Made by a program: the position numbers and the translations under genes
In this document: one piece after another, positions 4,024 through 60,140 of the stretch
Numbering within the stretch: position 1 is the first letter of the stretch
Layout of the letters: every line of letters starts with the position of its first letter
Notes under the pieces: generated by a model
The model's input: only the letters and a program-made list of their open reading frames with translations
Database searches by the model: none
Told to the model about the DNA's origin: nothing
From: a virus
Lineage: Duplodnaviria > Caudoviricetes
Reading direction: 5' to 3' (one strand)
Length of the DNA stretch: 64,000 nucleotides
IMG/VR virus record: IMGVR_UViG_3300033076_001048
Span: 1-64,000 of that record

Positions 4024-5922
4024 ATGCAAATGAAAAAAATTCTTTTATCATTAACACTGTTTTGCGCTTCGCTGGTGAGTTACGCGCAAACATGTCCGAC
4101 ACCGACCACAACGGCCGCTCACGTGACATTAGATTCAACTTACCAAACAGGTACCTATAGGTCTGGAAAAACAAATATAGGATTGTGTTGGTATAACAAC
4201 ACCTCAACAAACATTACCGCAACACAGTTTAGAGTATTCTACGATAAAACTGCGTTCTCTAAAGTTGATACTGTTACTTCGTTAAATACGTCGTTCTCAC
4301 AGTATCTTCAGTATGTGGACAATCCAAGTGGTGGTTATGTGACAATTACTTTAACTTACACAGGTACAAACAGTAGTTTCACATTACCTAATGGAAAGAT
4401 GTTTCAAGTAACTTTAAAACATTCATCGGCACTTGCGACAACATACTTTTCCCCTACCGATATGACATTTGGTGGAACACCTACGTTCCCTCAGTTAGCA
4501 ACAACTCAGGCAGGTGCTGACTACTCGTTAACACTTAAAAACTTTGGTGGTGTTTTCAAACCACAAGTTATGTCATTCAAGGGTAAATTTGTAAACGTTA
4601 CTGGTACACCGTCAAAGAACTTAACAGTTTCATTAGAGAAGAAACTTAAAACGTCTTCTACGTGGACTTATGTTCAAGATACCTTTACTAACAGTTTAGG
4701 TAAATTCTTCTTTACTAATGTTGCAATTGATACAACAGCTTGGGATGTAAGAATTGCAGTTAAAGGTGATACTATGGGCATTGGAGCAATTGTATCTACA
4801 TCAGATGCACAAAGAATCAACCAATATGTTTTGGGAACACAAACAATGACTGGTTTTGATTTCTATTCTTCAGATGTAAACGGTGACAATTCAGTTTCAA
4901 TCTCTGACGTTTATGGTGTTTACGCAAGAGTATCAGGTAGATTCACAACTTGGTCAAATAGTGTTAAAGATATCAAATTCTTTACAGCGTCTGAATACGC
5001 AACTATTAACGGTTCAAGTACAAACTACACAAGTACAATTGCTGGTGTAACAAACTTCACTTACCAAATCATTGCAGGTCAACCTGACTCTGTAACTTAT
5101 TATGTTGTGTGTCCTGGTGATGCAAACGGAACTGGTTACAACAGAGCTCGTTTGACACCAATTCAAATTGTTAATCCTAACAATGCTAACAAACACATCA
5201 TTGATGTAACAACAGCATACGATAACATTTTGGAAACTATTGAAGTTAACTACCCTAAATTAGGTGTTGATGCTGGTGACATGGTTAACATCCCTGTAAA
5301 ATTAAAAACAGGTGGTATTAATTTGGGTTCATTACAAGTTTGTATGAAATATGACTCAACTCTTTTAACTTTCAAAGGTGTTAAAAATGAATTGAAAACT
5401 TCTTATTGGATTTCATTCATCAATACTACCAACAACATGGTTGAATGGGGTGGATATGACCCATCTAATAACCAACACTTGGTTAATGATGGTGATTTAT
5501 TTTTCACATTACAATTTGAATCTAAGAAACCGCAAAATGAATGGGGTAAAAGTCCTTTATACGTTCAAAGAAAATTTGCAGGTAACTCATTAGCAACTGA
5601 TTTAAATATTAGTCCAACTGATGGTATTATTCAGGTTTTCAGAATGGGTGGAACAACAAACAATTTCAAAGATATGATTTTATATCCTAACCCATTCGAG
5701 GGTGATGTAACAATTGGTTTTAAAATTTACAACGAAGGTAAAAACATTATTGGTATCTACGATGTAAATGGAAAACAACAAATGGAAATTGTACCAAACG
5801 AAACAAAAATTGGAATTTATTCAAACACAGTTGATTTAAGTTTTTTACCACCAGGAACTTACTTGGCGGTTTTAAGAAACGAAGAAAAAACAACAACCAA
5901 AAAAGCAGTTAAAACTAACTAA
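4024..5922 (+). CDS. T9SS-sorted protein: cohesin-like, dockerin-like and cohesin domains plus type A CTD
   Basis: Signal peptide; DVNGDNSVSISDV dockerin loop; VNIPV...KYDSTLLTFKGV cohesin; YPNPF...YDVNGK...LPPGTYL CTD. Confidence 0.85.
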   Translation: MQMKKILLSLTLFCASLVSYAQTCPTPTTTAAHVTLDSTYQTGTYRSGKTNIGLCWYNNTSTNITATQFRVFYDKTAFSKVDTVTSLNTSFSQYLQYVDNPSGGYVTITLTYTGTNSSFTLPNGKMFQVTLKHSSALATTYFSPTDMTFGGTPTFPQLATTQAGADYSLTLKNFGGVFKPQVMSFKGKFVNVTGTPSKNLTVSLEKKLKTSSTWTYVQDTFTNSLGKFFFTNVAIDTTAWDVRIAVKGDTMGIGAIVSTSDAQRINQYVLGTQTMTGFDFYSSDVNGDNSVSISDVYGVYARVSGRFTTWSNSVKDIKFFTASEYATINGSSTNYTSTIAGVTNFTYQIIAGQPDSVTYYVVCPGDANGTGYNRARLTPIQIVNPNNANKHIIDVTTAYDNILETIEVNYPKLGVDAGDMVNIPVKLKTGGINLGSLQVCMKYDSTLLTFKGVKNELKTSYWISFINTTNNMVEWGGYDPSNNQHLVNDGDLFFTLQFESKKPQNEWGKSPLYVQRKFAGNSLATDLNISPTDGIIQVFRMGGTTNNFKDMILYPNPFEGDVTIGFKIYNEGKNIIGIYDVNGKQQMEIVPNETKIGIYSNTVDLSFLPPGTYLAVLRNEEKTTTKKAVKTN

Positions 5923-16769: not shown

Positions 16770-17597
16770 TTATGCTAATAAGTGATAATACTCTTTAAAG
16801 TGTTTAATTCTATCAGGAAGTCCGATAGTACCACCGTTTACTCTTTTTGTAACTGCGGTTACCGTAGCATCGTCAGCTCCTTTATCCGCAATTGCGTTCA
16901 ATCCGTTCTTACTGAAGAACCAACCTGCAGATGCTAATGCGTATTTGGTAGCAACCAAATCAGGATTTGCAACTGTATCTTCACCAATTGATTTTGCAAA
17001 AGATGCGTAGTTGTCTTTACCTGTCAATTGGATATATCCTCTACCTCTGAATTTGTAACCTTCTTTTGTTTCCTCACCACCGTTACCCATTCTTCCACCA
17101 TAAACTTTTGATGCAATTTTTTCAGGGTTTCTTGCGTATGATTCAGCGATGTTACCAGGGAAATATTTAGGGAAAATCTTTTTAAGACCATCCGCAGAGT
17201 AATTCAAGTTTTCTTGAGTTGCTTTGAATCCTCCTGATTCGTGACCACATTGTGCCAAGAAATGTGCCAATCTTAAAGGTGTGTTAATTTGGAATTTTTC
17301 CATTACAGTTGGAATCTGTGCAATTACTGCTTCAGGAATATGTCCTTTTAATTTCTCCAAATTAATTGGACCACCTTTAGGGATAATAACAACATCTTCT
17401 TTAATAACTGATGCTGATAATCCTAATTTTTCCATTGATGCTGGACCGATAATACCGTCAGCGGTTAAACCATTTTTTGTTTGCCATTCCTTAACAATTT
17501 TTTCAGTGCCAGGACCGAAATCACCGTCAGCGGCAATTCCCAATTTTGCTTGAAGAGCTTTTACCTCTTCTCCTTTTGAACCTAATTTTAAAATCAT
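16770..17597 (-). CDS. Endolysin: PG-binding domain plus GH19 chitinase-like lysozyme
   Basis: DGDFGPGT/DGIIGP PG-binding repeats; HFLAQCGHESGGF, FRGRGYIQLTG, VTKRVNGG. Confidence 0.93.
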   Translation of the reverse strand: MILKLGSKGEEVKALQAKLGIAADGDFGPGTEKIVKEWQTKNGLTADGIIGPASMEKLGLSASVIKEDVVIIPKGGPINLEKLKGHIPEAVIAQIPTVMEKFQINTPLRLAHFLAQCGHESGGFKATQENLNYSADGLKKIFPKYFPGNIAESYARNPEKIASKVYGGRMGNGGEETKEGYKFRGRGYIQLTGKDNYASFAKSIGEDTVANPDLVATKYALASAGWFFSKNGLNAIADKGADDATVTAVTKRVNGGTIGLPDRIKHFKEYYHLLA

Positions 17598-25792: not shown

Positions 25793-26936
25793 ATGCGTGA
25801 TTTAATTAAAAAAATATTAAAAGAAGAAGTTGGGGTACCTCGTGGGATTACAGATTCTGCACAAAAGTTATATAATGATATTATAACAAGATTAAAAAGA
25901 AAAACAGTAACAGGTAATTCTAACTTTAGTTTATCGTTTAAAAATACAAATAAAAAATATTCTTTTTCTGATTATCAAGATTTTGAAAACATAATAGTTG
26001 AATTTGAGTTTGATGGGTATGATGAGAGTGAAACTCATAAAGGAATTTTAGTCTTGGGATTGGGTCATAACGGTCAATCTCAATTAGATAATGGTTTTAA
26101 ATTGAATAATGTTGACACTGACGAAATAAAACTTTCAATTAATTTAGCAATTCCAACCTCAATTAGTGAGGTTGATAATAAAATTATTATCCAAACTCTA
26201 CAAGATAATAAAAGTCTAATTATGTCATCATTAGCACATGAATTGAAACATGCGTATGATAGTTACAAAAAACCTTCTGAAACTGTAAAACAAAGGTCGT
26301 TATATGGTGCATATTCAGGTACTCGTTTTGGTATTGAAGAACTTTATCACAGCAATTGAAAACTTGGTTAGACCTTCTGAAATTTATAGCTTGATGCAAC
26401 AGGGTGAAATATCTCAAAAAGATTTTTTAAATTTTATTTCAAGTAACAGAACGTATTCAACACTTAAAGACATAAATGAATTTAGTCTTGAAAATATGAT
26501 TAAATCATTAAAACAAAAACCTGAAGAAATTGATAAATTTTTATCAAACGTTGAGGATTATGAAATTCCAGAGTCAATGGATGTGAAAATAAATGATTTA
26601 TTAAAAATAGTTTATTTTGAATTACAGAAAAGAACATTACAGAGAGCACACTCAATGTTAACAAACAATTTCTTTGAGGCTATGTTTGGTTTGTCAGATG
26701 AAAAAATGAAATTTTTAAATTCTTTTGAGAGCGAAATTCTAAAATTTAAAAAAAATCCATTGAAATATTTTGAATTTCAAGAGAAAAAGTTTAAATTTGT
26801 AAGCGAAAAAATGATGAGACGATTATCAAAATTATATTCTTTGGCTAAGCCAAACCCTATTAAATTGGTTCATAAAGACCCAGTAACATATGAAATGAAA
26901 ATGTTAGAGTCTAAACCAAGAAATATAAAATCTTAA
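25793..26936 (+). pseudogene. Frameshifted leader-family HExxH metallopeptidase-like gene
   Basis: 25793-26359 (LAHELKHAYD) continues in another frame near 26341 (FITAIENLVRPSE). Confidence 0.7.
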
Positions 26937-28349: not shown

Positions 28350-28880
28350 TTAATAGTTAACTACAATATTTGGGTTTAAATCAAATTCTTCAAGCAATAT
28401 TTTTTTAATATTATGTGTGATTTCATATCTTGAGGACTCAAAATATACTCGTCTTTTAAATGTAATTTTCATTGTTGGAATTAATTCACTTGAGTTTTCT
28501 TTTCTCTTAAGAGAAATCCCATGTATAGTTCCTTTACCTATTTCACGAATACGTGGTTTGATTTTTTTTTCTAATACTTCTTTATTCCATTTTTTTTCAT
28601 CATCAGATATAAATGTAATACTTTTGTGAACCCATGTCATATCGCCTAAAAAACCATATTCTTTAATTTTATTAATATGATTTACAAGATAATTTCTAAT
28701 CTCATATGAACTTATATATTGTTTTGATGTCATTAAATTTGTGTAATTAAATTTCACATCACAGTATACAGATAAATGACGACCAACTATAATACTATAA
28801 TTTGTTTCCATGTCTTCATGAAAACTTTTAATACTATTAAATCTGTTTAAGAAATCCAATATTAATTCTTGGTCTACCAT
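28350..28880 (-). CDS. Hypothetical protein
   Basis: Minus-strand TATATTTG at 28888-95. Confidence 0.7.
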   Translation of the reverse strand: MVDQELILDFLNRFNSIKSFHEDMETNYSIIVGRHLSVYCDVKFNYTNLMTSKQYISSYEIRNYLVNHINKIKEYGFLGDMTWVHKSITFISDDEKKWNKEVLEKKIKPRIREIGKGTIHGISLKRKENSSELIPTMKITFKRRVYFESSRYEITHNIKKILLEEFDLNPNIVVNY

Positions 28881-28940: not shown

Positions 28941-31088
28941 ATGGATTCTACTTATGAAATTGTAAAAGAACTTATTGACTTTAATTCTGAGGGAGTTGAT
29001 ACGTATAACCACAATGGAAGTACGTGGTTAATTTTTACTGACCAAAAAAAATGGGTCATAGAATTAACAAAAGAAAAAACTCTTTGGTATAACTATTATT
29101 TTTTTACAGGTGTTTTTAAATACCTATCGTTGGATGTTGTTGAAAATCAACATTACATTACTAAATGGGTTGAAGATACAATAATCAATCCCGTGAAACA
29201 CACCTCTCATTTTCATTGGAATAATGATAGTTCTGTTGAAGACACAATTGAAAATGGGGTGAAAGACATCCAAGAAGGGATTGGAATTCAAGACCTTACA
29301 GTTGAAGACACCTTTGAATATTATGGGAGAAAGTGGAATAAAGTTAATGATACCATTCAAAATGGGGTGAAAGACATTCGACAGGGTATTCCACTTCTCG
29401 GATTTCAAGTTGAAGACACCATTCAAAATGGGGTTAAACAAACGAAACGTAGTTATGAGGGTTCAAGAAAACAGAGAACAGAAGACACCATAGAAAATGG
29501 GGTTAGACACACCATAGACACCTCATATCATAGAAACAATTTGGTTGAAGACACCATACAAAATGGGGTGAAACACACCCGGTCAATCCAATATCAATGC
29601 CTTCGAGCAGTTGAAGACACCATACAAAATGGGGTGAAACACACCGAAAAATCTCTACAAATTGATGGTTCTTGTGTAATTGAAGACACCATACAAAATG
29701 GAGTAAAAAAAACCAAAAAGGGTGTTTTAGTACAAGAACTTAGTTTTGAAGGTGTTATTGAAAATGGGGTGAAAGAAACCAAATCATACGTCAATAATGA
29801 TTTTGATATGAACGACGCCATAGAAAATGGTGTTAAACACACACAAGGTAGTATTTTTGATAACCCAACGGCAGTTAAAGAGACCATTCAAAATGGGGTG
29901 AAACATACTGATTGTTTTGGGGAATATGAAGATTATGAGATTGATACCATTATTCAAGATGGAATAAAAAACACCGGAGAAATATTATGGAGACATACAC
30001 AAACGATTGAAGACACCATAGAAAATGGAATAAAAGAAACTCACCGTTTTGGTTTAGGGAATGAAGATGAAATAGAAGACACCATTCAAAATGGGGTGAA
30101 ACACACACAAGGTAGTATTTTTGATAACCCAACGACAGTTAAAGACACCATACAAAATGGTGTAAAAGAAACTTCATTTTGGTCAGGTGTTCAACCTCTT
30201 GTTGAAGATGTAATACAAAATAGAGTTAAAAAAACTTATTCTGATAAGATTCCTCATGAATATGATTGGACTAACCAATTTACAGAAGAGATTGATATTA
30301 TCATTGAAAATGGTGTTAAAGAAACCAAACTTGGAGCACCTGATAATAGAGATTATTTTATTGAAGATGCAATTCAAAATGGTGTGAAAGAAACAACACC
30401 TGGTGGATATTTGGGGTTTGTTGAAAAGAAGGGTAAGAAAATCCATCAATTTGAAACCGCAAAACAACTTTATTATGTTGAAGATGTTATTGAAAGTGGT
30501 ATTAAAAAAACTGAGGCGGCAGCTTTGTTTGACGAAGAATCAAAAATGGATACTGTCATCAGTGAGGGTATTAAAGAAACACATGATGATGTTATGCCAC
30601 ATACAGGTAGGGTTGAAGGTGTAATTAAAAATGGTGTAAAGGAAACCGTAGACGCTTTATCATCAAGATTACCAAACCCTGTTGGAGATGTAATTAAAAA
30701 TGGTGTTAAACAATGTATACCATCACATACTCCCCTATACAACCCAATGGATTTTTCTGTTGAATATCTTGAAAACCATAGATTAGATGATGTTACAAGT
30801 GTTTTAGAAAAAGGTATTAAAGAAGTTCAACCGTTACCAGCACAGGATGGTAATAGGGATTGGGGTATTTACTATCACAGACAAGAAGTCCCAACCAAAC
30901 CTCATACTCAATATGTTGATGATGTAATTACTAATGGAATAAAAGAAACAAAACCGATGGATGAGTGGGTTAATACTGAGAGAATCTTGGATGGTGTTAT
31001 TGATAAAGGTATTAAGGAAACCAAATCATCAGGAAGTAATTTTCCGAAATGGGCGGATGATGTTATTAATAATGGAATTAAATCTTAA
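28941..31088 (+). CDS. Repeat protein: ~75-aa N-terminal domain plus ~26 VEDTIQNGVKHT units with variable linkers
   Basis: Open frame throughout; TTTG-N20-TATCTTTA promoter at 28905-28936. Confidence 0.85.
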   Translation: MDSTYEIVKELIDFNSEGVDTYNHNGSTWLIFTDQKKWVIELTKEKTLWYNYYFFTGVFKYLSLDVVENQHYITKWVEDTIINPVKHTSHFHWNNDSSVEDTIENGVKDIQEGIGIQDLTVEDTFEYYGRKWNKVNDTIQNGVKDIRQGIPLLGFQVEDTIQNGVKQTKRSYEGSRKQRTEDTIENGVRHTIDTSYHRNNLVEDTIQNGVKHTRSIQYQCLRAVEDTIQNGVKHTEKSLQIDGSCVIEDTIQNGVKKTKKGVLVQELSFEGVIENGVKETKSYVNNDFDMNDAIENGVKHTQGSIFDNPTAVKETIQNGVKHTDCFGEYEDYEIDTIIQDGIKNTGEILWRHTQTIEDTIENGIKETHRFGLGNEDEIEDTIQNGVKHTQGSIFDNPTTVKDTIQNGVKETSFWSGVQPLVEDVIQNRVKKTYSDKIPHEYDWTNQFTEEIDIIIENGVKETKLGAPDNRDYFIEDAIQNGVKETTPGGYLGFVEKKGKKIHQFETAKQLYYVEDVIESGIKKTEAAALFDEESKMDTVISEGIKETHDDVMPHTGRVEGVIKNGVKETVDALSSRLPNPVGDVIKNGVKQCIPSHTPLYNPMDFSVEYLENHRLDDVTSVLEKGIKEVQPLPAQDGNRDWGIYYHRQEVPTKPHTQYVDDVITNGIKETKPMDEWVNTERILDGVIDKGIKETKSSGSNFPKWADDVINNGIKS
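29169..31085. repeat. CRISPR-like in-frame array: 36-nt repeats with modal 30-nt spacers
   Basis: Consensus GTTGAAGACACCATACAAAATGGGGTGAAACACACC (exact at 29544 and 29610); spacers 27/30/33 nt up to 30200, mostly longer and degenerate afterwards; no cas genes in window. Confidence 0.9.
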
Positions 31089-31430: not shown

Positions 31431-32039
31431 TTACCACTTTAATAAAAAATCTTTTATGATTATCCCATAACGGTCTTTAAAGTATTCAGATACTAATGAT
31501 TCAGATTTTTCTCTACTTCCAATAGAAAAGTATTTTGTTAACTCGTCTACAATATCCTCAGTTAAAAACATTCTTCCCCAAGAATTTTTTTGTGCAATTA
31601 TATTTTTATCTAATTCTAAATCATTCTTTCTGTATATACGAATATAACCGTCATCATTAGTAATATTTAAACCACCATAGGACATCTCAATGATATCATC
31701 CATGATTTCAAACATCTTTTCCTCATTGTCATCCTCAGACTCATTTAACGAATCTTGATTTTGTTCTTTCCAAAATTGTCTAATTTTATCACCAACCAAT
31801 TTCTTAAATATTTCCTCATACTCAGCAACATCAGACCAATCAATATCGTAAATTACCTCAGGTAATAATATTTCAATTACATAATCAACATAATCATCTT
31901 CAGGATATTCTTCGGCTTCTTCACCAATGTCGGTATTGTTTAACATTTCATACAAGACATCAGATATTTCTGATAACCTTCTTCTAACTGAATTAGGTAT
32001 GATTTGTTCAAACTGAGATTCTGATATGATAATCTTCAT
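31431..32039 (-). CDS. Leader-family two-module protein (MKIIISESQ)
   Basis: Leader, VRRRL module, internal SLNE. Confidence 0.8.
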   Translation of the reverse strand: MKIIISESQFEQIIPNSVRRRLSEISDVLYEMLNNTDIGEEAEEYPEDDYVDYVIEILLPEVIYDIDWSDVAEYEEIFKKLVGDKIRQFWKEQNQDSLNESEDDNEEKMFEIMDDIIEMSYGGLNITNDDGYIRIYRKNDLELDKNIIAQKNSWGRMFLTEDIVDELTKYFSIGSREKSESLVSEYFKDRYGIIIKDFLLKW

Positions 32040-32857
32040 TACAAATAAATATTACCTCCAACATTAACCATTTGTCTTATTTCTTCTTCAGAATATTTTT
32101 TGGATATTGGAGTTAAAAATATATCCAAATTACCACCAACTGATTGAAGATTTCCAATAGATTCAATTGGAGTATCTTCTAAAAATAAATCACCACCAAC
32201 TGATTGAAGATTTCCAAGAGATTTAATTGGGGTGTTTATTAAATTCAAATTACCACCAACGTAAGTTAAGTTTCCAAGAGATTCGATTGGTGTGTTACGT
32301 AAACGCAAATTACCACCAACATGAGTTAGGTTTCCAAGGGATTTAATTGATGTTTTTCGTAAATCCAAATCATCACCAAGTGAGTATAATGGATTTCCTT
32401 CAGATTCTAAAAATTTTAGAAAAAGGTCCCAATTATTATTAAAATATTTTAATGACGGAATATGAAGAACTTCATCTTCTTCACTTTCCATTATTTTTTT
32501 ATATTGAGATTCGGTAATAATAATTTTTCTTACTGACTCAGTTCTTAATTTTTCACTACAATTTTTTTTATAATAATTAGAAAGATAATCACCAAATAAA
32601 TCAACCATGTGATAATAAAAACTATCTCTATCTTTGGCGGACGCATTTAAATCTTCAAGATAATTGTATGTCATTATATCACAGGCTTCAGCAATAAAAG
32701 CACCAACGTTCTTAAATTCACATGGTAGCATTGCATATTCAACAATGTTATCCATTTCTTGTTTCATATCATCCATAGACATTCTTCTACGAAGATATGT
32801 GGAGATGGTTTCCAATAAAACTGTTTGATGTTGTGATTCAGTAATAATGATTTTCAT
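32039..32857 (-). CDS. Leader-family fusion protein with a second internal leader and leucine-rich repeats
   Basis: MKIIITESQ...RKIIITESQYKKIME; three to four 22-aa TPIxSLGNLxxVGGNLxL repeats. Confidence 0.85.
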   Translation of the reverse strand: MKIIITESQHQTVLLETISTYLRRRMSMDDMKQEMDNIVEYAMLPCEFKNVGAFIAEACDIMTYNYLEDLNASAKDRDSFYYHMVDLFGDYLSNYYKKNCSEKLRTESVRKIIITESQYKKIMESEEDEVLHIPSLKYFNNNWDLFLKFLESEGNPLYSLGDDLDLRKTSIKSLGNLTHVGGNLRLRNTPIESLGNLTYVGGNLNLINTPIKSLGNLQSVGGDLFLEDTPIESIGNLQSVGGNLDIFLTPISKKYSEEEIRQMVNVGGNIYL

Positions 32858-52177: not shown

Positions 52178-53656
52178 ATGGCATTTTTACCAATTACCTT
52201 TAACACTGGGTCTACAATATCAGGAACTACGCAATATGGAAATATTGCTGTTGGTTCTGAAAATTTTGATATATCAGCATATTCAAACCGTAATTGGTAT
52301 TATTCACCTACAAATGTTTCAGGATGGACAATATTTTCAGACACAGGAACCATTTGGGGTAACGCAAACCCAATTCCAACATTTTGGGTAGCACCTGATT
52401 TTACAAGTAATTCTTTAATAAATTTAGTCAATCAGTTACCCAATAGAAATGGATTGGTTACACCAATAACTACAAGTGGTGACGCAATTTCATGGTTATC
52501 AACTAACGGTTACTACACCAATAGTCCCGTATCATTTATGCCCTTAATAATGTCGTTCACAACAACTACCTCAAATGAATCAATTGTCTTACCATTTATT
52601 CAAGGTGGTTATTATGAAGGAACAATAAATTGGGGTGATGGTACAACTTCTAATAGTTCATATGATAATAGAACACACGTGTACTCAACTGCAAGTGCTT
52701 ACACAGTAACAATAAGTGGTAGATGTGAAGGATTTACATTTGAACCAGGCTTAGGTAGTAGTTATAATAAAGTTAGTTCTGTTACTCAATGGGGTAGTAT
52801 GTTGTTTGGGTCGAACAGACAAGGTACTGATAGTTATTTTCAAGGTACATCAAATTTAAATTTAACCGCAGTTTCAGATGTTCCATCTACATCGGGATTA
52901 ACAAATTGGTGGGAAATGTTTAGAGATAGAACTCAAGGTAATCCATCTATTAATAGATTAAATGAATGGGATACAAGAAGTGCCACCGCAATGGGTCTTA
53001 TGTATAATAGAAACTTTTCATGGAATCAAAATATTGGGAATTGGGACGTATCAAACGTTAGTTTGTTTACTCAAATGTTCTATAGAGCTAACTCATATAA
53101 TAATGGTGGTTCAGACACAATTAAAAATTGGAATACAAGCGCAGCAACTTCAATGGCTGCGATGTTTTATCAAACTCAATTTAATCAACCAATAACAGGT
53201 TGGAATGTTAGTAATGTAACAAATATGAGTCAGATGTTTCAACAAACACCTTTCAATTATCCAATTAATAGTTGGGATGTTAAAAATGTTACAAATATGG
53301 GTTCTATGTTTTATGGTTGTACTTCATTTAACCAACCATTAAGTAGTTGGACAACATCAGCTTGTACAAATATGTCATATATGTTTTATGGTGCAACATC
53401 ATTTAATCAAGATATTGGTAATTGGAACGTAAGTAATGTTTCAAACTTCACGGGTTTTATGGGAACTAAAACTGATTTAACTTTTTCATCATCTAATTTA
53501 GATTCTATTTATAATGGTTGGTCATCAAGACCTGTACAACCAAACATTTCAATAAGTTTTGGAACCGCAAAATATACGTCAGCTAGCGCCGCTGGTAAAG
53601 CAATATTAACAGGTTCACCAAACAATTGGACAATAACAGACGGAGGACAAATATAA
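52178..53656 (+). CDS. BspA/DUF285-repeat protein with a PKD-like domain; candidate virion adhesin
   Basis: WDVSNVTNMxxMF...FNQ.I..W repeats; INWGDG; late motif. Confidence 0.85.
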   Translation: MAFLPITFNTGSTISGTTQYGNIAVGSENFDISAYSNRNWYYSPTNVSGWTIFSDTGTIWGNANPIPTFWVAPDFTSNSLINLVNQLPNRNGLVTPITTSGDAISWLSTNGYYTNSPVSFMPLIMSFTTTTSNESIVLPFIQGGYYEGTINWGDGTTSNSSYDNRTHVYSTASAYTVTISGRCEGFTFEPGLGSSYNKVSSVTQWGSMLFGSNRQGTDSYFQGTSNLNLTAVSDVPSTSGLTNWWEMFRDRTQGNPSINRLNEWDTRSATAMGLMYNRNFSWNQNIGNWDVSNVSLFTQMFYRANSYNNGGSDTIKNWNTSAATSMAAMFYQTQFNQPITGWNVSNVTNMSQMFQQTPFNYPINSWDVKNVTNMGSMFYGCTSFNQPLSSWTTSACTNMSYMFYGATSFNQDIGNWNVSNVSNFTGFMGTKTDLTFSSSNLDSIYNGWSSRPVQPNISISFGTAKYTSASAAGKAILTGSPNNWTITDGGQI

Positions 53657-58317: not shown

Positions 58318-60072
58318 TTATTTTATCACAATTACCTGATATGTAATACTACTGTTTCCGCCTTTGATATGGAAATAATAAGTACCACCACTCAAGTCAG
58401 ACAAATTTACATTAACAGAATTTTCACCTTTGATAACATTTGTCTGAGTCACATTTTTAACAATTCTTCCATTCAAATCAGTCAAATAAACATCAGCATT
58501 GAATGATTGTGTTGATGAGAAGTCAACAGTATATTGACCTTCAGTTGGGTTAGGGTAAGCATTCACCGATGTTACTTTTCCAACAGTCTTTACATGTAAT
58601 ACACCATATAAACCTAAAACACCATATTCAAAGTTTGATGGATATTCTGTTGTTGGTCTAAAATCAGGTTCATTAAAATTGTTTGTATTAACCAATATAC
58701 CTGGTACGAAAGTATTGGTATCAATAAAATTATTGTTTATCGAATTACGAACCCAACTATCTAATAGATTCACATTACCACCTGAACTAACCTCAACCAA
58801 ACCTGTATTGGTTGCTCCAACAGGTGCAGATGCTTTAACACCATAGATGTAGTTGTTTCTAAACAAATTATTTTTGTCGGAAATTGTTTTTGATTTAACA
58901 CCCGAGTTAACTAACACTGAATCACCATCAAACATCACAAAGTTTCTGTAACCCATAAAGATTGAGTTAACAATGCTTAAACGAGAGTTTCTACGAATTC
59001 TTACTCCACGTCTGAACGCACCCTTTTGTGTTGTTGTTAATTGAGACCAAGTCATACCTGCAGGTATTGGACCAACACAAGTAATGTTTGAGAATACTGC
59101 AGATGTTAATGGTAATCTACCTGAACCTGAAGCGTCATTGTCTGACTCAAATGTTTCTGAAGTTGATGCTCCTGATGGTGAGTTCCAAGATAAATCATAT
59201 AATTGCGAATCCTTAAATGCAATACCAAATTGAACCGCACCTGTATATCCAAAGTCGGTATCAAAATCATCATCAGTAGTTTTGAATGAAATTAGATGTT
59301 TACAGTTAACCGTACCACCGAACCACTCATACGAATCATCATTTGAGTATGAAACTTGAACATGGTCAACAGTAGTATTTCTTCCGACTGAAGCCAAAGT
59401 CAACCCATTGATTTCTTTGTTAGGTTCAAACGCCAAACCACAAAATTCAATTCTCGTGTACTTTATAACACCACTATTATCATCATCATTGATACCACCG
59501 TGTTTTGCTAATGTTGAGTTTGTTTTAATGTTATTAAATCCTTCAACTTGGATATCAGTACCTTGGTTATTTCTTGCATTACCACAAATAACAATTCCAC
59601 CCCAATCACCTCTACCTCTATATTGACTACCCTTTGCCGATGTAAACACAACAGGTCTAGCTGAAGTTCCTTCACATGAAATATAACCACCTCTTTCAAC
59701 TACGATTGTTGCATATTGTTTTGGTGTCATACTTAAATTAGCAATACCTCTGATTATAGTTCCAGCAGGGATAATCAATTTACCACCGTTTCTAACAACA
59801 ACAACGCTTCTTAATAAGTAAGTTATTTTTTCATCCAAAGTTACAGTTCCAGTAATCTCAATAATACCTGTTGGGCTATTGAAAGTTGTGGTGTCCCATC
59901 CATAATCAGCCGCCCAATACATGGTTTTAGGGTTCCAATTTGTCCATCCAATAGTCCAATCTTTTGATTTGTCTGCCGATAAGGCACCAACGTAATTTAC
60001 CTTCTCAAAAAATTGAGCATGTCCTGTAATACACAACAAGACCGATAATAATGTAATAATTATTTTTTTCAT
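58318..60072 (-). CDS. T9SS-sorted beta-helix-like surface protein
   Basis: Signal peptide; WGGIVICG, EINGLTL, DDSYEWFGG; AYPNPT...DLNGRIV...GTYYFHI CTD. Confidence 0.85.
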   Translation of the reverse strand: MKKIIITLLSVLLCITGHAQFFEKVNYVGALSADKSKDWTIGWTNWNPKTMYWAADYGWDTTTFNSPTGIIEITGTVTLDEKITYLLRSVVVVRNGGKLIIPAGTIIRGIANLSMTPKQYATIVVERGGYISCEGTSARPVVFTSAKGSQYRGRGDWGGIVICGNARNNQGTDIQVEGFNNIKTNSTLAKHGGINDDDNSGVIKYTRIEFCGLAFEPNKEINGLTLASVGRNTTVDHVQVSYSNDDSYEWFGGTVNCKHLISFKTTDDDFDTDFGYTGAVQFGIAFKDSQLYDLSWNSPSGASTSETFESDNDASGSGRLPLTSAVFSNITCVGPIPAGMTWSQLTTTQKGAFRRGVRIRRNSRLSIVNSIFMGYRNFVMFDGDSVLVNSGVKSKTISDKNNLFRNNYIYGVKASAPVGATNTGLVEVSSGGNVNLLDSWVRNSINNNFIDTNTFVPGILVNTNNFNEPDFRPTTEYPSNFEYGVLGLYGVLHVKTVGKVTSVNAYPNPTEGQYTVDFSSTQSFNADVYLTDLNGRIVKNVTQTNVIKGENSVNVNLSDLSGGTYYFHIKGGNSSITYQVIVIK

Positions 60073-60140
60073 ATTTTTTAATTTAACCAATAAGTAGTAA
60101 AAAAATATCAGATTAACACTAATATAATATTAACATTATG

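Follow-up and report, generated by a model that had tools for sequence, protein, structure and literature searches.

A putatively translated CRISPR-like array in a gene family of large freshwater phages

Can a phage protein-coding gene lengthen by the steps that extend a CRISPR array? The question is raised by a locus in a 64,000-nt stretch of DNA (hereafter the window; positions 1 to 64,000 of the IMG/VR virus record IMGVR_UViG_3300033076_001048, a 73.8-kb record of 31% GC). The initial annotation described a gene with the geometry of a type VI-B array, with about 26 tandem units of a 36-nt repeat separated by mostly 30-nt spacers. A single open frame of 715 codons is present on the + strand at 28941-31088, between genes on the - strand, and a TTG at 28869 is a possible longer start. 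It encodes a 76-residue domain with a predicted fold, followed by about 25 copies of a 12-residue motif (VEDTIQNGVKHT) alternating with inserts, all in frame. The features of this locus are as follows.

28941-31088 (+): 715-aa ORF, N-terminal domain plus repeat-spacer array in one frame.
28941-29168 (+): conserved 76-aa domain (predicted helix, four strands, two helices) whose coding sequence takes the place of the leader; the predicted fold continues through repeat 1, insert 1, and the start of repeat 2 (to 29267).
29140-29150 (+): candidate leader motif, suggestive only, starting exactly 29 nt before the first repeat.
29169-29204 (+): first (growth-end) repeat, degenerate in this copy (8 mismatches, central palindrome broken).
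29169-30200 (+): variable part of 15 units with inserts mostly of 30 nt, a mix of inserts seen only here and inserts shared with relatives at other ranks.
29544-29645 (+): two identical repeats around a 30-nt insert (47% GC) not seen in any other array, the youngest-looking unit.
29844-29873 (+): insert duplicated at 30108-30137 with one change and also present in 8 other arrays.
30201-31088 (+): old, conserved 3' part with decayed repeats and longer inserts shared with up to 60 other arrays.

The observation made in the initial annotation holds, with some corrections of detail. A peptide scan lists 26 repeat hits, one of which (30570) is spurious, and a nucleotide profile finds 24. Of the 15 inserts before 30200, ten are 30 nt, two are 33, two are 27, and one is 72 nt (29271-29342); the last contains a truncated repeat copy and had been omitted from the earlier description. 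The inserts at 29844 and 30108 differ by one base, as described. Mismatches to the repeat consensus rise from 0-8 in units 1-8 to 12-20 in the last units, confirming decay toward the 3' end, but the first repeat (29169) has 8 mismatches and the two perfect copies are units 6 and 7 (29544 and 29610). Repeat conservation by codon position is 0.74/0.89/0.63. Apart from the duplicated pair the inserts are unique within the gene, although 16 of 23 recur in homologous arrays.

This gene belongs to a large family in roughly 300-kb freshwater Bacteroidota phages. There are 385 homologues of similar length, 500 clusters at 50% identity carry the domain, and homologues lie on lake-phage contigs of up to 322 kb. 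Secreted-looking proteins with type IX secretion-like C-terminal tails in the window (4024-5922 (+) and 58318-60090 (-), identified by eye) point to a Bacteroidota host, while 16770-17597 looks like an endolysin. Assignment of a host through a methylglyoxal synthase (PF02142; 56877-57251 (-)) was unsuccessful; its nearest homologues lie on phage-like lake contigs. Elsewhere in the window, an ORF at 32039-32857 (-) has 60-nt tandem repeats (32126-32385) of leucine-rich-repeat look and, like several of its neighbours, begins with an MKxIITESQ-type motif. The ORF at 52178-53656 (+) has 72-nt repeats (53161-53299) resembling surface-protein repeats, and two overlapping ORFs at 25793-26936 (+) look like one gene split by a frameshift.

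To determine whether the family grows like a CRISPR array, we compared 108 distinct homologous arrays. Of 1350 inserts, 1349 are a multiple of three, with a mode of 30 nt, a pattern far beyond chance. Inserts seen in only one array fall from 31% at rank 1 to about 10% deeper in, and shared inserts keep their order in 10542 of 11901 pairs (10542 to 1359). Two homologous arrays, designated L002 and L243, begin with five and at least eight identical repeats, respectively, each followed by an unrelated insert of exactly 30 nt. A related phage genome (G005) holds at least eight further cassettes with another repeat variant that is identical within a cassette (2-4 identical repeats in several of them), and several end in a terminal repeat broken in its 3' half. 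Some of these (L304:18300-20000, L311:15000-17600, and L306) are tandem domain-plus-mini-array cassettes fused in one frame to other domains, one of which looks like a nucleotidyltransferase. Lineage-specific repeat variants are copied into neighbouring units. This is what duplication of the first repeat during integration, established for Cas1-Cas2, produces. Polarised gain with copying of the first repeat is seen in relatives; the window copy itself has a degenerate first repeat.

Some inserts in relatives are of foreign origin. Inserts between identical repeats have 44% GC, flat across codon positions, whereas the phage has 31% and old inserts have 37% with 26% at third positions; 55 inserts have at most one difference between their flanking repeats. 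Insert 6 of L002, read backwards, encodes ILAATNRAD. With the whole 534-nt L002 array as query against 301 genomes of one Bacteroidota order, 9 of 12 hits began on the first base of that insert and ran to its end; all nine carry the FtsH motif, at 26-27 of 30 nt, with every mismatch at a third position. Insert 7 of L243, read backwards, matches an ERF gene of another phage at 28 of 30 nt and 10 of 10 residues. However, the ftsH and ERF leads were first picked by eye from 86 inserts in six frames and so carry a selection effect. A G005 insert matches relA/spoT at 25/30, and two further bacterial genes are matched at 25-26/30; these three hits are weak (E about 0.001 per genome). Insert 5 of L243 (L243:14603-14632) holds a perfect 18-nt palindrome, perhaps from an operator or terminator.

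Other searches for insert sources gave negative results. No exact protospacer and no PAM were found, the matches being near-matches in relatives of the true sources; the flanks of those matches are not the real ones. No source was found for any insert of the window's own gene. No convincing self-derived insert was found in five phage genomes, the best being 26/30 in an AT-rich stretch, and bacterial spacers gave no credible match to the phage genomes. Array searches in INPHARED and PLSDB were empty or at chance level, two spacer patterns retrieved only their own array in IMG/VR, and the L243 array had no match in sets of 401 and 64 genomes. PanB-like and AccA-like inserts reached 22 and 20 of 30 nt against control maxima of 21 and 20, and were therefore not counted.

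The array is under selection as protein. None of 726 distinct 30-nt inserts has a stop in the frame of the gene, against 24-75% in the other five frames and 43-45% in bacterial spacers, of which only 84% are 30 nt. Variants of shared inserts give a dN/dS of 0.31 in frame and 1.1 and 1.4 out of frame. The domain with repeat 1, insert 1, and the start of repeat 2 is confidently predicted to fold (AlphaFold2 pLDDT 93, pTM 0.83 for residues 1-109), with the repeat supplying a helix end and a strand start and the insert a strand end, loop, and helix start. This model matches several uncharacterised proteins of uncultured phages at TM 0.6-0.88 and 14-25% identity, suggesting that the fold is older than the array. 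The repeat region, however, is poorly predicted in the full-length model (mean pLDDT 52). There was no informative match in Pfam, PHROGs, Rfam, PDB sequences, Foldseek PDB, VIA wide (best Z 3.9), or the ESM Atlas, and cultured phages gave only weak tape-measure hits.

The repeat is also constrained as DNA. Young repeats use codons that are rare in these phages (ACC 0.96 against 0.12 genome-wide, GGG 0.83 against 0.11, and GTG 0.69 against 0.11), and old ones relax. All 32 freshly duplicated repeat types in relatives keep C12, G24, and C36 at third positions, and the G005 type changes two pairs of the central palindrome together at the cost of amino-acid changes. Such invariant bases show substrate specificity, not selection for acquisition. 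The first repeat of the window has A12 and C24, so this copy is probably no longer an integration site, and its mix of inserts from other ranks points to recombination. The motif YTGA lies at -29 in 47/58, 15/17, and 8/8 members of three phage subfamilies that have different residues there, and at -29/-28 in 7/20 type II-C leaders; the candidate motif of the window has 10/11 identity to the II-C leader of the array designated L566 at the same offset. This is suggestive only, as a profile test ranks offset 0 second, third, and twelfth of 70.

How does the locus relate to known CRISPR systems? A degenerate pattern built from the phage repeat and Cas13b repeats retrieved arrays of 36-nt repeats and 30-nt spacers beside Cas13b in Flavobacterium, Bergeyella, Riemerella, and others. 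Identity of the phage repeat to 16 Cas13b-type repeats averages 21-22/36, against 10-12 for shuffles and 17-19 for synonymous recodings (P 0.0002-0.023). The set was chosen by that pattern, however, and the likeness is confined to positions that the pattern fixed; positions left free are near chance (3.7-4.8 of 12). Like the type VI-B arrays of Bacteroidota (Smargon et al., 10.1101/092577; for example F. columnare and B. zoohelcum), the phage arrays combine a 36-nt repeat with a 30-nt spacer, show 20-25/36 identity to VI-B repeats, poly-U loop motif included, and have no cas1/cas2 of their own. They differ in that the match is to the strand opposite the crRNA. In VI-B arrays that strand ends at the leader, whereas in the phage it begins at the growing end. 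The loop strand starts with GGTG, has no GTTG/CAAC closure, and does not keep the VI-B inner stem, and the spacers are filtered for frame and evolve as peptide. Searches with two PADLOC-confirmed Cas13b proteins (tblastn) found nothing below E 0.4 in five phage records (G000, G001, G002 over 300 of 318 kb, G004, and G005), a result that does not exclude a host Cas13b. No Cas1 was found in five phage records, four of them near complete, and no Cas2 in two.

Read in its own polarity, the phage repeat ends in CACACC, like the distal CACAAC shared by II-C and VI-B repeats; Bacteroidota II-C arrays have 30-nt spacers and 36- or 46-48-nt repeats. In Flavobacterium columnare, II-C Cas1-Cas2 fills a VI-B array in trans with 28-32-nt spacers, about half from the host chromosome (Hoikkala et al., PMC8092290). 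As there, 30-nt spacers from host and phage DNA would be added at one end of a dissimilar repeat that shares the distal motif, although here the target is a phage coding sequence, the product is inferred to be a protein, and any dependence on Cas1 is inferred. Huge phages carry compact cas-less arrays without acquisition genes, with host-like repeats and spacers from other phages and bacterial chromosomes (Al-Shayeb et al., PMC7162821). Those are described as guide-RNA arrays, whereas the present arrays lie inside an ORF, with the leader position inside a domain predicted to fold, and their spacers are constrained by reading frame and not conserved as nucleotide guides. Diversity-generating retroelements likewise diversify the C-terminal part of a phage protein. 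In the present family, judged on the pattern of variation and not on the presence of a reverse transcriptase, whole foreign 30-nt units are inserted with repeat duplication, with no template/variable pair and no adenine-specific change. No bacterial array with the phage repeat itself was found in GTDB. A Flavobacteriaceae MAG (L140:3589-6400) has a 390-aa Cas12f/Cas12u3-like gene among four mini-arrays with a VI-B-like 36-nt repeat (25/36 to the phage repeat, joint closest), each followed by the same element that holds a partial anti-repeat; this gene has no homologue in the five phage records.

We suggest, with a probability of about 0.68 for the reading as a whole, that the gene is a protein-coding sequence that also serves as a CRISPR leader-repeat target. 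During infection, an integrase of the Cas1-Cas2 kind, most likely the type II-C complex of the host acting in trans, would insert a 30-nt piece of host or co-infecting phage DNA at the junction after the N-terminal domain and duplicate the 36-nt repeat. Because 66 nt is 22 codons, the frame would be kept, and inserts with a stop or a wrong length would truncate the protein and be purged. In this view, survivors add a new 10-residue segment between copies of a helix-turn-strand motif, are then kept under purifying selection as peptide, drift to phage codon usage, and are shuffled and lost by recombination between repeats and between phages. The sequences themselves demonstrate the geometry, the polarity, the copying of the first repeat, the foreign origin of some inserts in relatives, the frame filter, selection at the peptide level, and the lack of a recognisable cas1 in the phages. 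The identity of the integrase, translation of the array, the function of the protein, the adaptive value of its diversity (our guess is a variable binding or decoy surface toward host defence proteins), and the view that the window copy is old and not growing now are inferences. The origin of the repeat can be inferred only loosely. A VI-B spacer is antisense to a phage mRNA, so recombination between such a spacer and its target gene would bring in the neighbouring repeat in exactly the inverted orientation seen; alternatively, the repeat converged in place within an older fold. A full-text literature search, with poor coverage of subscription journals, found no paper describing translated CRISPR arrays. 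The further proposal that these phages have co-opted host CRISPR adaptation as a diversity generator, with Cas1-Cas2 continuing to write random 10-residue peptides from host and rival-phage DNA into the protein and useful ones being selected and traded between phages, is only slightly more likely than not.

The interpretation in the initial annotation, that a captured array was domesticated into a hypervariable protein or that the locus doubles as a CRISPR-mimic RNA, is partly supported. The locus works like a CRISPR array at the acquisition step but is not a type VI-B system; it is a putatively translated array. The likeness to VI-B repeats is real and the array, as inferred from sequence, is a hypervariable protein. 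The family, however, is not a frozen, domesticated array, since relatives are still taking up foreign 30-nt DNA at the 5' end. In-frame, stop-free spacers, cited earlier against an active array, reflect a filter on new insertions and are not evidence against acquisition. A Cas13b crRNA mimic on the minus strand is not supported.

Among the alternatives, the best surviving, though unlikely, is that the integration chemistry is the same but the protein diversity is a tolerated by-product, the site being an accidental off-target or a decoy that draws host Cas1-Cas2 away from host arrays, with selection only keeping the frame open. Many copies, including this one, have a degenerate first repeat, the short arrays of G005 sit between tandem domains and upstream of other domains, which alone would purge stops, and at least eight junctions in one genome would suit a decoy. 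However, inserts evolve at a dN/dS of 0.31 and some are kept in 25-70 arrays, about 640 codons stay open in the window although nothing follows the array, and competent repeats persist in lineages whose domains share only 35-70% identity.

Less likely still, the array may also act as RNA, either with the antisense strand as crRNA or crRNA mimic for host Cas13b or with the mRNA as an antisense sponge against VI-B repeats. Consistent with this, repeat identity to VI-B repeats exceeds that of synonymous recodings, 19 of the first 21 nt of the family consensus match the F. columnare repeat, the central palindrome shows the two compensatory changes in the G005 type, and the flanking genes lie on the opposite strand. 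Against it, the minus strand lacks the 5' GTTG and the VI-B stem, forming other hairpins of -4 to -7 kcal/mol compared with -9 to -11 for three of four VI-B repeats. In addition, inserts change mainly at third positions, unlike guides, the polarity is opposite to that of VI-B, and there is no Rfam match. The second inverted repeat of the repeat plus a T run scores as a terminator-like site on the antisense strand (window 29566-29580 (-)), but a promoter and terminator scan gave counts at chance level.

It is also improbable that a phage-encoded integrase not recognisable as Cas1 performs the insertions. The repeat is inverted relative to VI-B and has no exact bacterial counterpart, and the junction differs between subfamilies. 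Insert size (30), repeat size (36), distal end, and, more tentatively, leader offset match Bacteroidota II-C/VI-B arrays, however, and the gene neighbourhoods of three homologues show no annotated integrase, although the searches of the phage records covered only Cas1, Cas2, Cas13b, and one Cas12f. An ordinary tandem-repeat protein varying by duplication, divergence, and shuffling, which the codon-position pattern of the repeats, the ordinary codon usage of old repeats, the duplicated and re-ordered inserts, and the predicted fold over the first unit might suggest, is very unlikely and already contradicted by the antisense ftsH and ERF matches. In addition, unrelated inserts of foreign GC lie between identical repeats, and window inserts are 8.8/27 alike on average, against 7.4 when shuffled.

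If correct, this would be a natural case of CRISPR adaptation used to build protein rather than guide RNA, and a diversity generator that works by inserting foreign DNA units instead of point mutation, in effect a natural in-frame DNA-to-peptide recorder. It would make de novo peptide evolution traceable, since each module enters as near-random sequence, can be dated by rank, and can be watched coming under selection. The inserts would also record host DNA, which can assign hosts to abundant uncultured lake jumbo phages, and the inverted, coding repeat shows which features Bacteroidota Cas1-Cas2 may need.
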